NCBI GenBank assembly: GCA_016390365.1
Contig: GCA_016390365.1_3043.1
Source of the DNA: a phage
Direction: 5' to 3' (one strand)
DNA length: 64,000 bases
Of the stretch, positions 7,304 to 29,567 are shown in pieces. The position numbers and the translations under genes are program-made. How positions within the stretch are numbered: position 1 is the stretch's first letter; every line of letters starts with the position of its first letter. The notes beneath the pieces were generated by a model that worked only from the letters and a program-made list of their open reading frames with translations, was not told the origin of the DNA and did no database searches.

Positions 7304-7720
7304 ATGACTCGTATTAATTTGACTTTAGTATCTGAACTTGCTGATCAACATTTAATCGCAGAATACCGTGAATTGCCACGTGTTTTTGGTATAGTTCGTA
7401 AACACGTGGCAAATGGTAAACGGGTTAAAGATTTTAAAATATCTTCCGAGTTTATTTTAGGTTCTGGTCATGTCACGTTCTTTTACGATAAGTTAGAATT
7501 TTTGCGAAAGCGTCAATCAGACATTATAACGGAATGCTTAAAACGTGGGTTTAGTATAAAAGATACTGAAGTTCCTGACATCAGCGATATTCCAGCAGAA
7601 TGGAAAAATGATTATAACCCATGCAAATCGGCTATTAAATTGAGTCAACAACGACTCGATGAAAAAATTTTAATGAAGCCACACTGGTATAAATACTACG
7701 GCAAAAATATTTACATTTAA
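7304..7720 (+). CDS. denV: endonuclease V, pyrimidine-dimer DNA glycosylase
   Basis: 138 aa; N-terminus [27 protein letters not shown] as in T4 endonuclease V. Confidence 0.9.
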
Positions 7721-7729
7721 AGGAAACAC

Positions 7730-8203
7730 ATGAAAACATATCAAGAATTTATCACTGAAGCAGCTATTAATTCTCAAATTATTGCTGAATCTTTTACTGA
7801 TCTTTTGAAATTTAAAAAAGGTCAAAAAATCACTGCTGTATTAGATGATGGTACAGAAGTTGAGATGGATGTACAGGGATATAATTATGCAGTAGATGGA
7901 AAACTGTATAATAAATCTCATGCTAAATTTGATTCATTTGACGATTTTGTTAATACAGTTGAAGATGAAAAAACTCGTAGATCCATTGCAACTGGCGACG
8001 CTAAGGTTCTTATGGCACACGGTCATGAACGTATCCGCGCCAAACAGAATAAAATGGGCGAAGATAATTTTGCATTAGTTGGTTATCAATCTGGTAAACA
8101 AACTTATGGTTATCAGCGTACTGCTACCATGTATAATAAAAATGGTAAAATCGCTTTCGTGAATAGCAAAGGCTCTATTCAGTACGTCAAATCATTCAAA
8201 TAA
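7730..8203 (+). CDS. internal protein (IPII/IPIII-like) with capsid-targeting sequence
   Basis: N-terminus MKTYQEFITEA matches the T4 IP targeting sequence; 157 aa. Confidence 0.7.
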   Translation: MKTYQEFITEAAINSQIIAESFTDLLKFKKGQKITAVLDDGTEVEMDVQGYNYAVDGKLYNKSHAKFDSFDDFVNTVEDEKTRRSIATGDAKVLMAHGHERIRAKQNKMGEDNFALVGYQSGKQTYGYQRTATMYNKNGKIAFVNSKGSIQYVKSFK

Positions 8204-8356: not shown

Positions 8357-8896
8357 ATGAGAACATTTTTAACTGGCCCGTATCTATCCCTGATGAATGC
8401 TTTTACACACCATTCTGATGCTAGAGTAGAAGAAATTTGTAAAAACGAATATATCCCGCCATTTGAAGAATTACTTAAACAGTACTGTACACTTCGACTA
8501 GATGGTGGACGTCAATCTGGTAAATCAACTGCGGTAACTAATTTTGCCGCTAATTGGTTGTATGATGGCGGAACAGTTATTGTTCTTTCTAATACTTCAG
8601 CTTACGCTAAAATTTCTGCAGGCCACATTAAAAAAGAATTTTCTCGTTATTCTAGTAATGATATTCGATTCCGCTTATTTACTGATTCTGTCCGTAGTTT
8701 TATCGGTAATAAAGGAAGCAAGTTCAGAGGTTTATCTCTTTCGCGAATTTTGTATATAATCGATGAGCCTGTTAAATCTCCTGATATGGATAAAATTTAC
8801 GATATTCATATTGAAACTGTGCAACACTGCTGTAATAGTAAATGTTGCATTGGTGGTATTACTCGTCCGCAGTTTTTCGTAATCGGAATGCAATGA
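8357..8896 (+). CDS. hypothetical P-loop NTPase
   Basis: Walker A GGRQSGKST and Walker B-like ILYIIDEP; ATG 8357 (track ORF begins at 8309). Confidence 0.5.
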   Translation: MRTFLTGPYLSLMNAFTHHSDARVEEICKNEYIPPFEELLKQYCTLRLDGGRQSGKSTAVTNFAANWLYDGGTVIVLSNTSAYAKISAGHIKKEFSRYSSNDIRFRLFTDSVRSFIGNKGSKFRGLSLSRILYIIDEPVKSPDMDKIYDIHIETVQHCCNSKCCIGGITRPQFFVIGMQ

Positions 8897-9222
8897 TGAC
8901 AGACACACAGCTTTTCGAATATCTTTATTTTTCGCCAAAAACTATTAAAAATAAATTGGTGAATCATTTTGAAATTTTGGCAAATAACAACGTCTTGAGC
9001 GAATTTTATCCTAAGCAATACAAATTACAAAAAGGTGTATTCAAAGGATGCAGAGTTTTGTGTACTGCTCCTAATGCAAGATTAATGAATAAAATTCCAT
9101 ATTTTACCATGGAATTTATTGATGGACCTTTTAAAGGACTAATCACCCAAAGTTTAATGGCATATGATTCTGAGCCATTTTTAATTAAAGAACAATCTTG
9201 GATAAATTTATTTTCTAATTGA
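8893..9222 (+). CDS. hypothetical protein
   Basis: ATG 8893 overlaps upstream stop. Confidence 0.5.
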   Translation: MMTDTQLFEYLYFSPKTIKNKLVNHFEILANNNVLSEFYPKQYKLQKGVFKGCRVLCTAPNARLMNKIPYFTMEFIDGPFKGLITQSLMAYDSEPFLIKEQSWINLFSN

Positions 9223-9228
9223 GGTTAT

Positions 9229-9591
9229 ATGAAAGCATATCAAATTCTTGAAGGCACACATAAAGGTACTATTTATTTTGAAGATGGTATTCAAGCACGA
9301 ATTATTGTTTCTAAAACCTTTAAAGAGGACTCTTTTGTAGACCCAGAAATTTTCTACGGTTTGCATGCCCGTGAAATTGAAATTGAGCCACAGCCTACAG
9401 TTAAAATTGAAGGTGGTCAACACCTGAACGTTAACGTTCTGCGTCGTGAAACTTTGGAAGATGCAGTTAAGCATCCGGAAAAATATCCGCAGCTGACCAT
9501 CCGTGTATCAGGTTATGCAGTTCGTTTTAACTCTCTGACTCCGGAACAGCAGCGCGACGTTATCGCTCGTACCTTTACTGAGAGTCTGTAA
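9229..9591 (+). CDS. autonomous glycyl-radical cofactor (GrcA/YfiD-like)
   Basis: C-terminal 60 aa match E. coli GrcA, including glycyl-radical motif RVSGYAVRF; that half uses host-like codons (CTG, CGT, CCG). Confidence 0.85.
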
Positions 9592-9812
9592 TGGCAAAGA
9601 TAATTATTGAAGGTTCTAAAGATGTGCTAAATGCTTTCGCAGAATGGTTTAGTAATTCAGGCGAACAGCAATTTAATGAAGCGTGGAATATGGGTGATAT
9701 TAGTGGAATTTATCCTACGACAGAAATTTCTGTTCAGGGATATGGCATTCATGAACCTATTCGTTTAGTTGAATATGATTTGGGAACGGGCGAGGAAGTC
9801 AAATATGATTGA
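9591..9812 (+). CDS. hypothetical protein
   Basis: ATG overlaps previous stop (TAATG). Confidence 0.5.
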   Translation: MAKIIIEGSKDVLNAFAEWFSNSGEQQFNEAWNMGDISGIYPTTEISVQGYGIHEPIRLVEYDLGTGEEVKYD

Positions 9813-10408: not shown

Positions 10409-10870
10409 ATGACTATCAATACAGAAGTTTTTATCCGTCGAAATAAGCTTCGTCGTCACTTTGAGTCGGAGTTTCGTCAAATTAACAATGAGATTCGTGA
10501 GGCATCAAAAGCAGCAGGAGTCTCATCGTTTCATCTAAAATATTCTCAGCATCTTCTTGATCGTGCAATTCAACGGGAGATTGATGAGACATATGTTTTT
10601 GAATTATTCCATAAAATAAAAGACCATGTTTTAGAAGTTAATGAATTCCTGAGTATGCCTCCGCGTCCTGACATTGACGAGGATTTTATTGATGGGGTTG
10701 AATATCGTCCTGGACGTTTAGAAATCACAGATGGAAATCTTTGGCTTGGATTTACAGTTTGTAAGCCTAATGAGAAGTTCAAAAACCCGTCACTTCAATG
10801 CAGGATGGCAATTATCAACAGTCGTCGTTTACCAGGAAAGGCTTCTAAAGCAGTAATTAAAACTCAATGA
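10409..10870 (+). CDS. regB: RegB-like endoribonuclease
   Basis: 153 aa; sequence and own early promoter match my recollection of T4 RegB. Confidence 0.7.
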   Translation: MTINTEVFIRRNKLRRHFESEFRQINNEIREASKAAGVSSFHLKYSQHLLDRAIQREIDETYVFELFHKIKDHVLEVNEFLSMPPRPDIDEDFIDGVEYRPGRLEITDGNLWLGFTVCKPNEKFKNPSLQCRMAIINSRRLPGKASKAVIKTQ

Positions 10871-10877
10871 GGTAAAC

Positions 10878-11423
10878 ATGAGAAAAGCACTACTCGCTGG
10901 TCTATTGGCCATTTCAATGATGGCACATAGCTCCGAGCATACTTTCAGTAATGTCCAACTCGATAACATGCGTTACGCGTATCAATTCGGGGAACAATTT
11001 TCTAAGGATGGAAAATATAAAACACACAAAAATATCCACAAGAGCGGATTAGGTCATATAATGGCTGCCATTTTATGGCAAGAAAGCTCTGGCGGAGTTA
11101 ATTTAAAATCTAAACCAAAGCATCACGCCTACGGAATGTTCCAAAATTATTTGCCTACTATGCGAGCAAGAGTTAAGGAACTTGGTTATAATATGACCGA
11201 TGCTGAAATAAAAAGAATGTTGAATAAACGGTCCAATTCAGCTTCCTGGGCGTACATTGAACTTTCTTATTGGTTAAATATACATAAGGGCGATATAAGA
11301 AAAGCAATATCCTCTTATAATTCGGGATGGAATGTTAAAGCAGGTTCTAAATATGCTTCTGAAGTCCTAGAAAAGGCTAATTACCTTAAAAATAATAAAC
11401 TTTTGGAAATAGTAAATGACTAA
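10878..11423 (+). CDS. secreted lytic-transglycosylase-like protein
   Basis: Signal peptide MRKALLAGLLAISMMAHS; SLT-like motifs WQESSGG...GMFQ and SYNSGWN. Confidence 0.5.
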   Translation: MRKALLAGLLAISMMAHSSEHTFSNVQLDNMRYAYQFGEQFSKDGKYKTHKNIHKSGLGHIMAAILWQESSGGVNLKSKPKHHAYGMFQNYLPTMRARVKELGYNMTDAEIKRMLNKRSNSASWAYIELSYWLNIHKGDIRKAISSYNSGWNVKAGSKYASEVLEKANYLKNNKLLEIVND

Positions 11424-26812: not shown

Positions 26813-27286
26813 ATGTTATTGACTGGCAAATTATATAAAGAAGAAAAACAGAAATTTTATGATGCACAAAACGGTAAATGTTTAATTTGCCAACGAGAAC
26901 TAAATCCTGATGTTCAAGCTAATCATCTTGATCATGACCATGAATTAAATGGACCAAAAGCAGGAAAGGTACGTGGATTGCTTTGTAATCTCTGCAATGC
27001 TGCAGAAGGTCAAATGAAGCATAAATTTAATCGTTCTGGATTAAAGGGACAAGGTGTTGATTATCTTGAATGGTTAGAAAATTTACTTACTTATTTAAAA
27101 TCCGATTACACCCAAAATAATATTCACCCTAACTTTGTTGGAGATAAATCAAAGGAATTTTCTCGTTTAGGAAAAGAGGAAATGATGGCCGAGATGCTTC
27201 AAAGAGGATTTGAATATAATGAATCTGACACCAAAACACAGTTAATAGCTTCATTTAAGAAGCAGCTTAGAAAGAGTTTAAAATGA
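26813..27286 (+). CDS. 49: endonuclease VII (Holliday-junction resolvase)
   Basis: 157 aa; N-terminus MLLTGKLYKEEKQKFYDAQNGKCLICQREL... matches T4 gp49. Confidence 0.9.
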   Translation: MLLTGKLYKEEKQKFYDAQNGKCLICQRELNPDVQANHLDHDHELNGPKAGKVRGLLCNLCNAAEGQMKHKFNRSGLKGQGVDYLEWLENLLTYLKSDYTQNNIHPNFVGDKSKEFSRLGKEEMMAEMLQRGFEYNESDTKTQLIASFKKQLRKSLK

Positions 27287-29100
27287 CAATTGAAAAAGAA
27301 ATTGAAGGATTGATTCATAAAACTAATAAAGACCTTTTAAACGAGAATGCTAATAAAGATTCTCGTGTTTTTCCAACTCAACGGGACCTTATGGCTGGTA
27401 TTGTGTCTAAACACATTGCCAAAAATATGGTCCCGTCTTTTATTATGAAAGCGCATGAAAGCGGAATTATTCATTTCCATGATATTGATTATTCCCCTGC
27501 TCTCCCATTTACTAATTGCTGTTTAGTAGATTTAAAAGGAATGCTTGAAAACGGATTTAAGCTAGGTAATGCGCAGATTGAAACTCCTAAATCAATTGGC
27601 GTTGCTACTGCAATTATGGCGCAAATTACTGCGCAAGTTGCTTCCCATCAATACGGCGGAACGACTTTTGCGAATGTAGATAAAGTACTTTCTCCTTATG
27701 TTAAACGCACCTATGCAAAACATATTGAGGATGCAGAAAAATGGCAAATCGCTGATGCGTTGAATTATGCTCAATCTAAAACAGAAAAAGACGTATACGA
27801 TGCATTTCAAGCTTATGAATATGAAGTAAACACTCTCTTTAGTTCAAACGGACAAACGCCTTTTGTAACAATTACATTTGGTACGGGAACTGACTGGACT
27901 GAACGAATGATTCAGAAAGCAATTCTGAAAAATCGTATTAAAGGTCTTGGTCGTGATGGGATAACTCCTATTTTCCCTAAGCTTGTTATGTTTGTTGAAG
28001 AAGGTGTTAATCTTTATAAAGACGATCCGAACTATGATATTAAGCAGCTTGCTCTAGAGTGCGCAAGCAAAAGAATGTATCCTGATATTATTTCAGCTAA
28101 GAACAATAAAGCTATCACCGGTTCATCTATTCCTGTTTCTCCGATGGGTTGCCGTAGTTTCTTGAGCGTATGGAAAGATTCGACTGGTAATGAAATTCTT
28201 GATGGACGTAATAATCTTGGTGTTGTAACACTGAATCTTCCTCGTATCGCATTAGATTCTTATATTGGAACACAGTTCAATGAACAGAAATTTATCGAAT
28301 TGTTCAATGAGCGAATGGATTTATGTTTTGAAGCTTTGATGTGTAGAATTAGTTCATTAAAAGGAGTTAAAGCGACTGTTGCTCCTATTCTTTACCAAGA
28401 AGGTGCATTCGGGGTTCGTCTTAAACCTGATGACGACATAATTGAGTTATTTAAAAACGGTAGAAGTTCAGTGTCCCTAGGATACATTGGTATTCACGAA
28501 TTGAATATTCTTGTCGGTCGTGATATTGGACAGGAAATTTTAACTAAAATGAATGCTCGTCTTAAACAGTGGACTGAAAGAACCGGTTTTGCTTTTAGCT
28601 TGTATTCTACTCCCGCTGAAAACCTTTGTTATCGCTTCTGTAAACTTGATACTGAAAAATATGGAAGTGTAAAAGATGTTACTGATAAAGGCTGGTACAC
28701 TAATAGTTTCCATGTTTCAGTAGAAGAAAATATTACTCCGTTTGAAAAGATTTCTCGCGAAGCCCCATATCATTTCATTGCGACAGGTGGTCACATTTCT
28801 TATGTTGAACTTCCTGATATGAAAAATAACCTAAAAGGTCTTGAGGCTGTCTGGGATTATGCTGCACAACATTTAGATTATTTTGGTGTTAATATGCCAG
28901 TAGATAAATGTTTTACATGTGGAAGTACCCATGAAATGACTCCTACTGAAAACGGATTTGTTTGTTCTATTTGTGGAGAAACTGATCCTAAAAAGATGAA
29001 CACAATAAGAAGAACATGTGGTTATTTGGGAAATCCGAACGAACGCGGATTTAATCTCGGCAAAAATAAAGAAATCATGCATAGGGTTAAGCATCAATGA
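27283..29100 (+). CDS. nrdD: anaerobic ribonucleoside-triphosphate reductase
   Basis: 605 aa, uninterrupted; C-terminal glycyl-radical region and Cys cluster CFTCGSTHEM...CSICG. Confidence 0.9.
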   Translation: MTIEKEIEGLIHKTNKDLLNENANKDSRVFPTQRDLMAGIVSKHIAKNMVPSFIMKAHESGIIHFHDIDYSPALPFTNCCLVDLKGMLENGFKLGNAQIETPKSIGVATAIMAQITAQVASHQYGGTTFANVDKVLSPYVKRTYAKHIEDAEKWQIADALNYAQSKTEKDVYDAFQAYEYEVNTLFSSNGQTPFVTITFGTGTDWTERMIQKAILKNRIKGLGRDGITPIFPKLVMFVEEGVNLYKDDPNYDIKQLALECASKRMYPDIISAKNNKAITGSSIPVSPMGCRSFLSVWKDSTGNEILDGRNNLGVVTLNLPRIALDSYIGTQFNEQKFIELFNERMDLCFEALMCRISSLKGVKATVAPILYQEGAFGVRLKPDDDIIELFKNGRSSVSLGYIGIHELNILVGRDIGQEILTKMNARLKQWTERTGFAFSLYSTPAENLCYRFCKLDTEKYGSVKDVTDKGWYTNSFHVSVEENITPFEKISREAPYHFIATGGHISYVELPDMKNNLKGLEAVWDYAAQHLDYFGVNMPVDKCFTCGSTHEMTPTENGFVCSICGETDPKKMNTIRRTCGYLGNPNERGFNLGKNKEIMHRVKHQ

Positions 29101-29567
29101 ATTATGACAGAATATACCCGTGCTGCTTCGTGAATGGCCCTGGATGCAGGACCGTTCTTTTCGTTACAGGTTGTTTGCATAAATGCGAAGGGTGTTATAA
29201 TAAATCAACATGGAATGCTAGAAATGGTATTCCATTTACTGGTGAAACACTAGAACAATTAATTGAATGTTTGAATAATGATTATATAGAAGGATTAACT
29301 ATAACTGGAGGAGACCCTCTTTATCCTGATAACAGAGACGTGATTCATTGCATTGTTCAAACAGTAAAAAATCTTTATCCCAATAAAAGCATTTGGTTGT
29401 GGACAGGATATAAATTTGAAGATATTAAACAACTAGAAATGCTTAAATATGTTGATGTTATTATTGATGGGAAGTATGAGAAAAATCTTCCGACTAAAAA
29501 GCTGTGGCGAGGATCAGATAATCAGCGGCTTTGGTCAAATACCGATGGGGTGTGGAAACATGATTAA
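29097..29567 (+). CDS. nrdG: anaerobic RNR activating enzyme (radical SAM)
   Basis: 156 aa; Cys cluster near the N-terminus; ATGA overlap with nrdD. Confidence 0.85.
   Translation: MNYDRIYPCCFVNGPGCRTVLFVTGCLHKCEGCYNKSTWNARNGIPFTGETLEQLIECLNNDYIEGLTITGGDPLYPDNRDVIHCIVQTVKNLYPNKSIWLWTGYKFEDIKQLEMLKYVDVIIDGKYEKNLPTKKLWRGSDNQRLWSNTDGVWKHD

Follow-up and report, generated by a model that had tools for sequence, protein, structure and literature searches.

Gene vs.6 of T4-type phages as a mosaic of an old phage gene and an Escherichia coli grcA tract, with signs of repeated conversion from the host

We are confident, short of certainty, that gene vs.6 of the phage DNA analysed here codes for the glycyl-radical spare part Y06I, that the gene is a mosaic, and that its 3' tract has been converted repeatedly from the grcA gene of the host. 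The DNA is a stretch of 64,000 nucleotides (GenBank assembly GCA_016390365.1, contig GCA_016390365.1_3043.1), in the following called the window. Judged by an identical T4 protein for which the activity is reported, vs.6 and the biochemical task of its product are already on record, i.e., a T4 spare part which restores oxygen-damaged PFL. T4 Y06I has been a textbook spare-part protein since 2001, and nothing new is to be gained from the gene as such; what is of value is the pattern of its evolution.

The gene, its neighborhood and its product

Positions 9229-9591 of the plus strand are a real open reading frame, as read from the sequence and the list of open reading frames, with an ATG start, a TAA stop and a product of 120 aa. 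A Shine-Dalgarno-like GAGG on the same strand (9221-9224), read directly from the sequence, lies 4 nt 5' of the ATG and overlaps the TGA stop (9220-9222) of the vs.7-like frame directly upstream (8842-9222). At the other end the TAA (9589-9591) overlaps the ATG (9591-9593) of vs.5 (9591-9812). Promoter and terminator scans around vs.6 returned sites no commoner than in shuffled sequence. The gene order denV (7304-7720)...vs.7-vs.6-vs.5-vs.4-vs.3-regB (10409-10870) is that of T4 and of Shfl2; vs.1 is found at 10878-11423. The reading frame occupies the denV-regB interval of T4 and is, therefore, vs.6 with the product Y06I.

The window derives from a T4-type phage (Tequatrovirus). Its vs.6 protein is identical to T4 Y06I in 120 of 120 residues, and genomic position and mosaic build are shared. 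The T4 gene differs from that of the window by 8 nucleotides, all synonymous (97.8% identity over 363 nt). At the DNA level the closest phage is ECML-363 with 99.7% identity. The protein matches PHROG 1209 over its full length (residues 1-120, E = 1.2e-62). Thus reading frame, Pfam, identity with T4 and synteny all carry the assignment of 9229-9591 as vs.6/Y06I, an autonomous glycyl-radical cofactor and GrcA-like spare part.

The denV side of the neighborhood has peculiarities of its own. The denV allele of the window gives no BLASTN alignment to T4 denV at E <= 1e-20. In the window denV and vs.8 are separated by a 157-aa DUF7412 gene (7730-8203) which T4 lacks at this place, and the T4 ipII/ipIII segment upstream of denV has no BLASTN match in the window. 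This arrangement of the denV region (7304-8203) is common to the window and the environmental phage T4_ev151.

The original prediction of a glycyl-radical spare part of the GrcA/YfiD type is borne out. The Pfam profile Gly_radical (PF01228) is matched with 66.8 bits against a gathering threshold of 22.2, residues 61-101 covering profile positions 66-106. The protein aligns to residues 28-127 of YfiD, for which an NMR structure is available (PDB 6OWR), with E = 8.6e-42. Residues 61-120 are those of E. coli GrcA 68-127, which agrees with the predicted near-identity of the C-terminal 60 residues including the motif RVSGYAVRF. The radical glycine in this motif is Gly95; it aligns with G102 of GrcA and G734 of PflB. 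The C-terminus of PflB (residues 697-759) is 78% identical to the vs.6 protein over 63 aa, again including RVSGYAVRF. In contrast to the glycyl-radical domain of PflB, the vs.6 protein is free-standing, has 14 kDa and is devoid of a catalytic barrel.

A small, stand-alone protein with a PFL-type C-terminal glycyl-radical domain defines the GrcA/YfiD class; the vs.6 protein has this build, as does E. coli GrcA (YfiD) itself. The two are nevertheless distinct. The phage protein is 7 residues shorter, and within its N-terminal 59 residues identity is as low as about 37%, i.e., 14 of the 38 positions which align with YfiD 28-66. The E. coli grcA locus is situated between ung and eamB, whereas vs.6 sits in a phage operon. 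The NCBIfam GrcA equivalog TIGR04365 is matched by residues 20-120 only, with 153.3 bits under a cut-off of 170 bits (E. coli GrcA scores 234 bits); the shortfall arises because the N-terminus of the phage protein has diverged. The 5' half alone matches PHROG 1209 (E = 2.2e-15), and N-termini of this type are also present in the homologues of other Straboviridae, of T5-like phages and of Asteriusvirus.

According to the passages of PMC8683613 which treat the work of Wagner et al. (2001), YfiD and T4 Y06I obtain a glycyl radical from the PFL activase (PFL-AE) and, in a complex with O2-cleaved PFL, restore its activity. YfiD and Y06I are the only spare-part proteins known to be validated. A rescue of host PFL, which was considered from the beginning, is supported by this activity of the identical T4 protein.

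The second target considered at the beginning was the anaerobic RNR. That the vs.6 protein is a spare part for the phage NrdD, and not or not only for host PFL, we regard as very improbable. NrdD is also a glycyl-radical enzyme and is cleaved by oxygen at its radical glycine. Further, in the Aeromonas phage AsFcp_4 a vs.6 homologue (1501-1884 of locus L095) directly follows nrdD-nrdG and is itself followed by nrdC and nrdH, and in the Escherichia phage UE-S1, an Asteriusvirus, the homologue (298-657 of locus L092) is located directly downstream of nrdD. Yet BLASTP of the vs.6 protein against the NrdD of the window results in E = 2.6 with the wrong region aligned. The radical motif of NrdD is RRTCGYLG, that of the vs.6 protein IRVSGYAV. 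All phage homologues which were read have kept the PFL-type RVSGYAVRF, those adjoining nrdD included, and it is the PflB C-terminus to which the vs.6 protein is similar at the 78% level. The genes nrdD (27283-29100) and nrdG (29097-29567) are confirmed in the window, but 17.7 kb downstream of vs.6. Consequently the proposed vicinity to the anaerobic RNR genes is weak, the gene order of T4 simply being conserved, and a rescue of O2-damaged NrdD loses its footing for lack of similarity to the NrdD C-terminus. The nrdD-vs.6 cluster for anaerobic metabolism of AsFcp_4 and UE-S1 is absent in T4-type genomes. The proximity of the two genes is probably due to a common role in anaerobic life and not to a repair of NrdD.

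The host-derived tract and its borders

With a database of 5,426 complete E. coli genomes, BLASTN aligns positions 9407-9591 (nt 179-363 of the gene) to chromosomal grcA in all 5,426 of them, with 97.8% DNA identity, 4 mismatches in 185 nt and E = 4e-83. Upstream of 9407 there is no BLASTN alignment to E. coli grcA in any of these 5,426 genomes, and at the 3' side the identity stops at the stop codon. A three-way alignment places a sharp 5' junction at codon 60, which is ATT (Ile) in the phage and GTT (Val) in E. coli. A nucleotide alignment with E. coli grcA had been named initially as a check on an observation of codon usage; as it turns out, the codons understated the case.

The gene is accordingly described in three parts, all on the plus strand. 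The phage-lineage 5' part (9229-9406) comprises codons 1-59 and the first base of codon 60 and is the part without BLASTN alignment to E. coli; in the three-way alignment its similarity is weak. The host-derived tract (9407-9581) codes for residues 60-118 including the glycyl-radical loop and has the type I haplotype of chromosomal E. coli grcA; from grcA of E. coli strain 503025 it differs in 2 of 175 nt. Two synonymous changes, both C>T, are private to the window tract and are located at 9454 and 9525. The 3' edge (9582-9591), GAG AGT with G at 9582 and T at 9585, has the same states as phages without an E. coli tract. In the segment numbering used below the last 186 nt of the gene are 1-186, i.e., the window coordinate is 9405 + position. 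G177, T180 and, in Mosigvirus, A183 are also present in the Pseudotevenvirus EC-F1 and in the Klebsiella phage RCIP0002, both of which are devoid of an E. coli tract. These comparisons indicate that the 3' edge bases (GAG AGT CTA TAA) are ancestral phage bases outside of the tract. An interpretation of G177, T180 and A183 as substitutions after capture was dropped, as EC-F1 and RCIP0002 have the same bases without such a tract. Likewise, the notion that phage tracts never agree fully with E. coli was dropped after the edge bases had been left out and further E. coli haplotypes had been included in the comparison.

The predicted contrast between host-type codons in the 3' half and a phage-like 5' half is real. 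In the 3' half five of six Leu codons are CTG, compared with 7.8% in the phage background (binomial P = 1.6e-5), and CCG accounts for all three Pro codons (background 14.9%). In the 5' half Pro and Leu are encoded by CCA/CCT and TTG/CTT, the usage of an AT-rich phage which fits its own tRNA set, e.g., Leu-UAA and Pro-UGG. For GC3 the values are 0.39 (3' half) and 0.20 (5' half). Sub-windows of 61 codons average 0.245 over the window, and the 3' half belongs to the top 1.7% of them (z = 2.4). GC3 alone is set aside as a test for foreign origin since it is a moderate outlier only, codon-specific counts and nucleotide identity being far more decisive. The GC3 contrast is modest because optimal codons of E. 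coli often end in T. Nucleotide identity is the decisive evidence for a host origin of the tract.

The tRNAs of the window are clustered at 896-2441. Nine are discernible (Gln-UUG, Leu-UAA, Gly-UCC, Pro-UGG, Ser-UGA, Met/Ile-CAU, Tyr-GUA, Asn-GUU, Arg-UCU), and an odd ARAGORN call at 2347-2441 has a two-base anticodon. An Rfam scan of the window found tRNAs only. Compared with the canonical eight tRNAs of T4, Tyr and Asn are present and Thr is absent.

Which organism is the donor? Among 81 bacterial grcA genes the best match is E. coli with 97-98%, followed by a cryptic Escherichia species (96-97%) and Citrobacter/Trabulsiella (about 90%). For comparison, grcA genes of E. coli and Salmonella share only 84% over the stretch of the tract. 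Both halves of bacterial grcA have diverged to a similar extent (E. coli versus Salmonella: dS 0.98 in the 3' half, 0.91 in the 5' half). Therefore, the tract is native to bacteria and moved from host to phage. The 5' half is distantly GrcA-like and its N-terminus is common to other phages, thus vs.6 has the appearance of an old phage grcA-like gene of which the 3' part was replaced. By these alignments vs.6 is shown to be a mosaic of an old phage-lineage gene (codons 1-59 plus the last ~10 nt) and an E. coli grcA tract.

On the bacterial side, contig NZ_JBQPOM010000029.1 of 'Vagococcus sp. WN89Y' carries an enterobacterial-type grcA with 91% protein identity to that of E. coli. Vagococcus is a Firmicute label; the genome is probably contaminated or mislabelled.

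The mosaic is widespread. Using E. coli grcA as a query, the 185-nt tract is retrieved from 633 phage records at 95-99% identity and from 13 more at 90-95%. These ~646 records are of the Tequatrovirus/Mosigvirus type, and in all of them the tract starts at grcA nt 200; T4 (AF158101) and T2 are among them. A full-length gene of the host type does not occur among the phage records matched by this query. T4 has 3 mismatches to E. coli grcA, the window has 4. This separates two aspects of the original prediction of a recent or repeatedly refreshed acquisition. The comparative data fit such an acquisition in general. A recent capture specific to this phage has to be given up, considering the 3 mismatches of T4 and the ~646 records, i.e., the identity to host grcA is no higher than in other T-even phages.

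A host-like tract in a phage gene calls to mind an artefact, either host DNA which contaminates assemblies or consensus polishing with host reads. Indeed, the tract is identical to the species in which these phages are propagated, and host grcA reads would map onto vs.6. However, an in-frame chimera with a single junction is present in ~646 independent records from many laboratories, T4 AF158101 included; the tract has phage-private substitutions and phage-specific edge bases; and Klebsiella phages present the equivalent with their own host. The probability of an artefact is, in our opinion, negligible.

Other homologues present a different picture. Those of Karamvirus, Pseudotevenvirus, Krischvirus, T5-like phages, Asteriusvirus and Aeromonas phages show no host-like tract and are 71-87% identical to the sampled hosts, a sample from which grcA of the true hosts is mostly absent. 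A pattern scan of IMG/VR yielded 13 loci, six of which were matched via a pflB-like gene. In the Morganella phage vB_Mm5 the vs.6 homologue (37-690 of locus L090) is annotated with 217 aa, i.e., with an N-terminal extension of ~97 aa ahead of the usual MxxYQ... start, and a gene for an HNH endonuclease directly follows it. The extension may represent a genuine fusion or a start codon annotated wrongly.

Haplotypes, host genera and the history of the tract

When Tequatrovirus and Mosigvirus are compared, identity is 71% in vs.7, 89% in the 5' half of vs.6, 96% in its 3' half and 73% in vs.5. A comparison of T4 with a Mosigvirus-type contig from IMG/VR (L105) is even more telling: the 5' half has 18 differences in 177 positions, the tract none in 173 (Fisher P = 5e-6). 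If third codon positions only are counted, 12 of 59 and 0 of 58 differ (P = 3e-4). This indicates a tract which is younger than the split of Tequatrovirus and Mosigvirus.

Within E. coli four segregating haplotypes of the tract are distinguished, and each has its counterpart in the tract interior of phages. Type I (strain 503025) serves as the reference; it is present in the tract interior of sb2 and, each time with private changes, in the window and in ev151. Type II (SCU-124) has C105 and is found in T4, T2 and three IMG/VR contigs; in this respect T4 and the window, with type I and its 2 private changes, differ. Type III (FDAARGOS_497; 589 genomes) combines A27 and C105 and is that of Shfl2. 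Type IV (about 70 genomes) has A27, C105, A108 and T159 and reappears in PD112, with three private changes; under a uniform model the four-site coincidence would occur by chance with a probability of about 3e-6. Over 93 nt the phage collection yields 28 exact matches to type I, 329 to type II and 20 to type III. An exact type IV tract was not found in this collection; the closest phages deviate at a single position of the 93 nt. Some 20 phage alleles were inspected at every base and all others were counted by identity band. Type I is present in two phage backgrounds, that of the window and sb2 and, within the T4/T2 group, that of ev151.

A transfer in the opposite direction, with E. coli O157:H7 TR01 as a one-off recipient of phage DNA, was ruled out: with <=1 mismatch its haplotype exists in about 70 E. 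coli genomes, and it is exact in the 12 top matches, which are from varied E. coli strains. The differences among types I, II and III are single-site ones, which recurrent mutation could yield. Only type IV and the Klebsiella case are based on several linked sites.

The Klebsiella case concerns the Jiaodavirus phages Mineola, Shinkou and PKO111. Their vs.6 homologues have the gene, the length of 120 aa, the position and the two-part build in common with the window. The tract differs, however. It codes for LLDAVEH as in Klebsiella, the E. coli type being LEDAVKH. Its interior is 98.1% (Shinkou) and 96.8% (Mineola) identical to grcA of K. pneumoniae and only about 85% to that of E. coli; the median identity between different host genera over this stretch is 83%. 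The 3' junction is near segment position 160, compared with about 177 in the E. coli-type tract. The K. pneumoniae grcA used here is from a 5.37-Mb chromosome (CP125156.1) which is labelled plasmid in PLSDB, as the GTDB scan did not return this species. By alignment, the K. pneumoniae-type tract in Jiaodavirus is an independent event in another host genus.

Two observations on the databases are appended. PLSDB 'plasmid' records include whole chromosomes, 5.37 Mb from K. pneumoniae and 4.8-4.9 Mb from E. coli, a trap for plasmid statistics. In K. aerogenes NCTC10006 (200-600 of locus L119) grcA is frameshifted just ahead of the radical-glycine motif and annotated as a 324-nt CDS, either by an assembly error or as a pseudogene.

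Can a single old event account for these data? One may imagine one capture in the common ancestor of Tequatrovirus and Mosigvirus, with near-identity maintained by purifying selection, host-optimal codons included, and without any later exchange. The 5' junction at grcA nt 200 is uniform in the ~646 records and the 3' edge bases are common to most; the protein encoded by the tract is invariant (dN = 0); and type II clearly predominates in the 93-nt counts from phages. On the other hand, the synonymous sites of the tract vary freely in bacteria, as the dS of 0.98 between E. coli and Salmonella documents, and in Jiaodaviruses. The two phage genera are separated by 0-3 differences in the 173 bases of the tract but by 18-21 in the 177 bases of the 5' half, and the flanking genes are about 70% identical. 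Lastly, phages contain four E. coli haplotypes, the four-site one among them. A single ancient capture is already strained by the present data and we consider it unlikely. Taken as sequence comparisons, the genus split, the haplotypes and the Klebsiella phages favour repeated refreshing over one old capture.

A further possibility is that, after one or a few captures from the host, the tract was passed on by recombination between T-even phages which infected the same cell. T-even phages recombine readily. The tract is identical in T4 and the Mosigvirus-type contig despite diverged flanks, type I resides in two backgrounds, and the 3' edge bases are common. What this leaves unexplained are the four distinct E. 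coli haplotypes in phages and the K. pneumoniae-type tract of Jiaodavirus with its other junction; at least three or four host-to-phage events would still be needed. As a full explanation we deem it doubtful, although less so than a single ancient capture. Recombination between Tequatrovirus and Mosigvirus could reduce the number of host-to-phage events needed and be part of the spread.

We thus return to repeated conversion from the host and to its frequency. Within Tequatrovirus the synonymous divergence is 0.12 for the whole 3' half and 0.13 for the 5' half. It is about equal in both halves, therefore refreshing would be occasional and not constant, too infrequent to wipe out the variation. 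The most far-reaching formulation, that the 3' tract is continually overwritten by gene conversion from grcA of whichever cell is infected, we tend to accept, if only by a narrow balance. The case for recurrent conversion is built from comparisons of sequences, and it is from these that we infer the conversion events.

The following scenario would bring these observations together. In the infected cell host PflA, the PFL activase, would put the radical on Gly95, the mechanism reported for the identical T4 protein. The activated vs.6 protein would bind to PflB which was cut by oxygen at G734, replace the lost C-terminal fragment and restore PFL activity. The presumable benefit is that the production of acetyl-CoA, formate and ATP is maintained in a micro-oxic infected cell which is unable to induce its own grcA. 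During infection grcA fragments from the degraded host chromosome may pair with vs.6 via two stretches which are almost invariant in hosts and phages, GAAGGTGGTCAACACCTGAACGTTAACGT at the 5' end of the tract and CCGGAACAGCAGCGCGACGTTATCGC towards its 3' end. The recombination system of the phage would then convert the tract interior by homologous (homeologous) recombination or gene conversion. As there is no homology upstream of codon 60 or past the stop codon, the converted stretch could not extend any further and the edge bases would remain those of the phage. Were this event repeated, the tract would come to match recent hosts in species and even in grcA haplotype. Nucleotide identity would be a by-product of recombination, and selection would act on the protein because the domain must fit to host PflB and be recognised by host PflA.

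Significance and comparison with other phage genes

The nucleotide-level mosaic, the sharing of haplotypes with hosts and the parallel event in Klebsiella phages are not described in the literature which was searched; older key papers were outside of this search and an earlier report is possible. In a review of T4 relatives vs.6 is not mentioned. A pattern of host-to-phage gene conversion is, apparently, undescribed and of modest interest. Recombination between host and T-even phages is usually assumed to be negligible, the host DNA being destroyed. If the tract is repeatedly converted, it reports, naturally and with little sequencing effort, on recombination between a host chromosome and a virulent phage. 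Recent hosts would then be legible, as to species (E. coli versus Klebsiella) and even grcA haplotype, from a short piece of the genome of a strictly lytic phage which degrades their DNA, and the tract could mark the recent host lineage of a phage.

A practical aspect is connected with this. In 2026, grcA was proposed as a core-gene target for typing of Straboviridae coliphages by PCR/qPCR (PMC12845203). Over its 3' 185 nt the gene has 95-100% identity with the chromosome of E. coli; therefore, primers placed there would amplify host DNA.

How does vs.6 compare with other metabolic genes of lytic phages? The cyanophage genes psbA and psbD are host-like photosynthesis genes for which intragenic exchange with the host copies is reported. 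Like these, vs.6 is a metabolic gene of a lytic phage which sustains a host pathway and appears to swap patches with the host copy. Unlike psbA/psbD, only half of the vs.6 gene is host-like, the identity of this half to extant host alleles reaches 99-100%, and its carrier is a T-even phage which degrades the DNA of its host.
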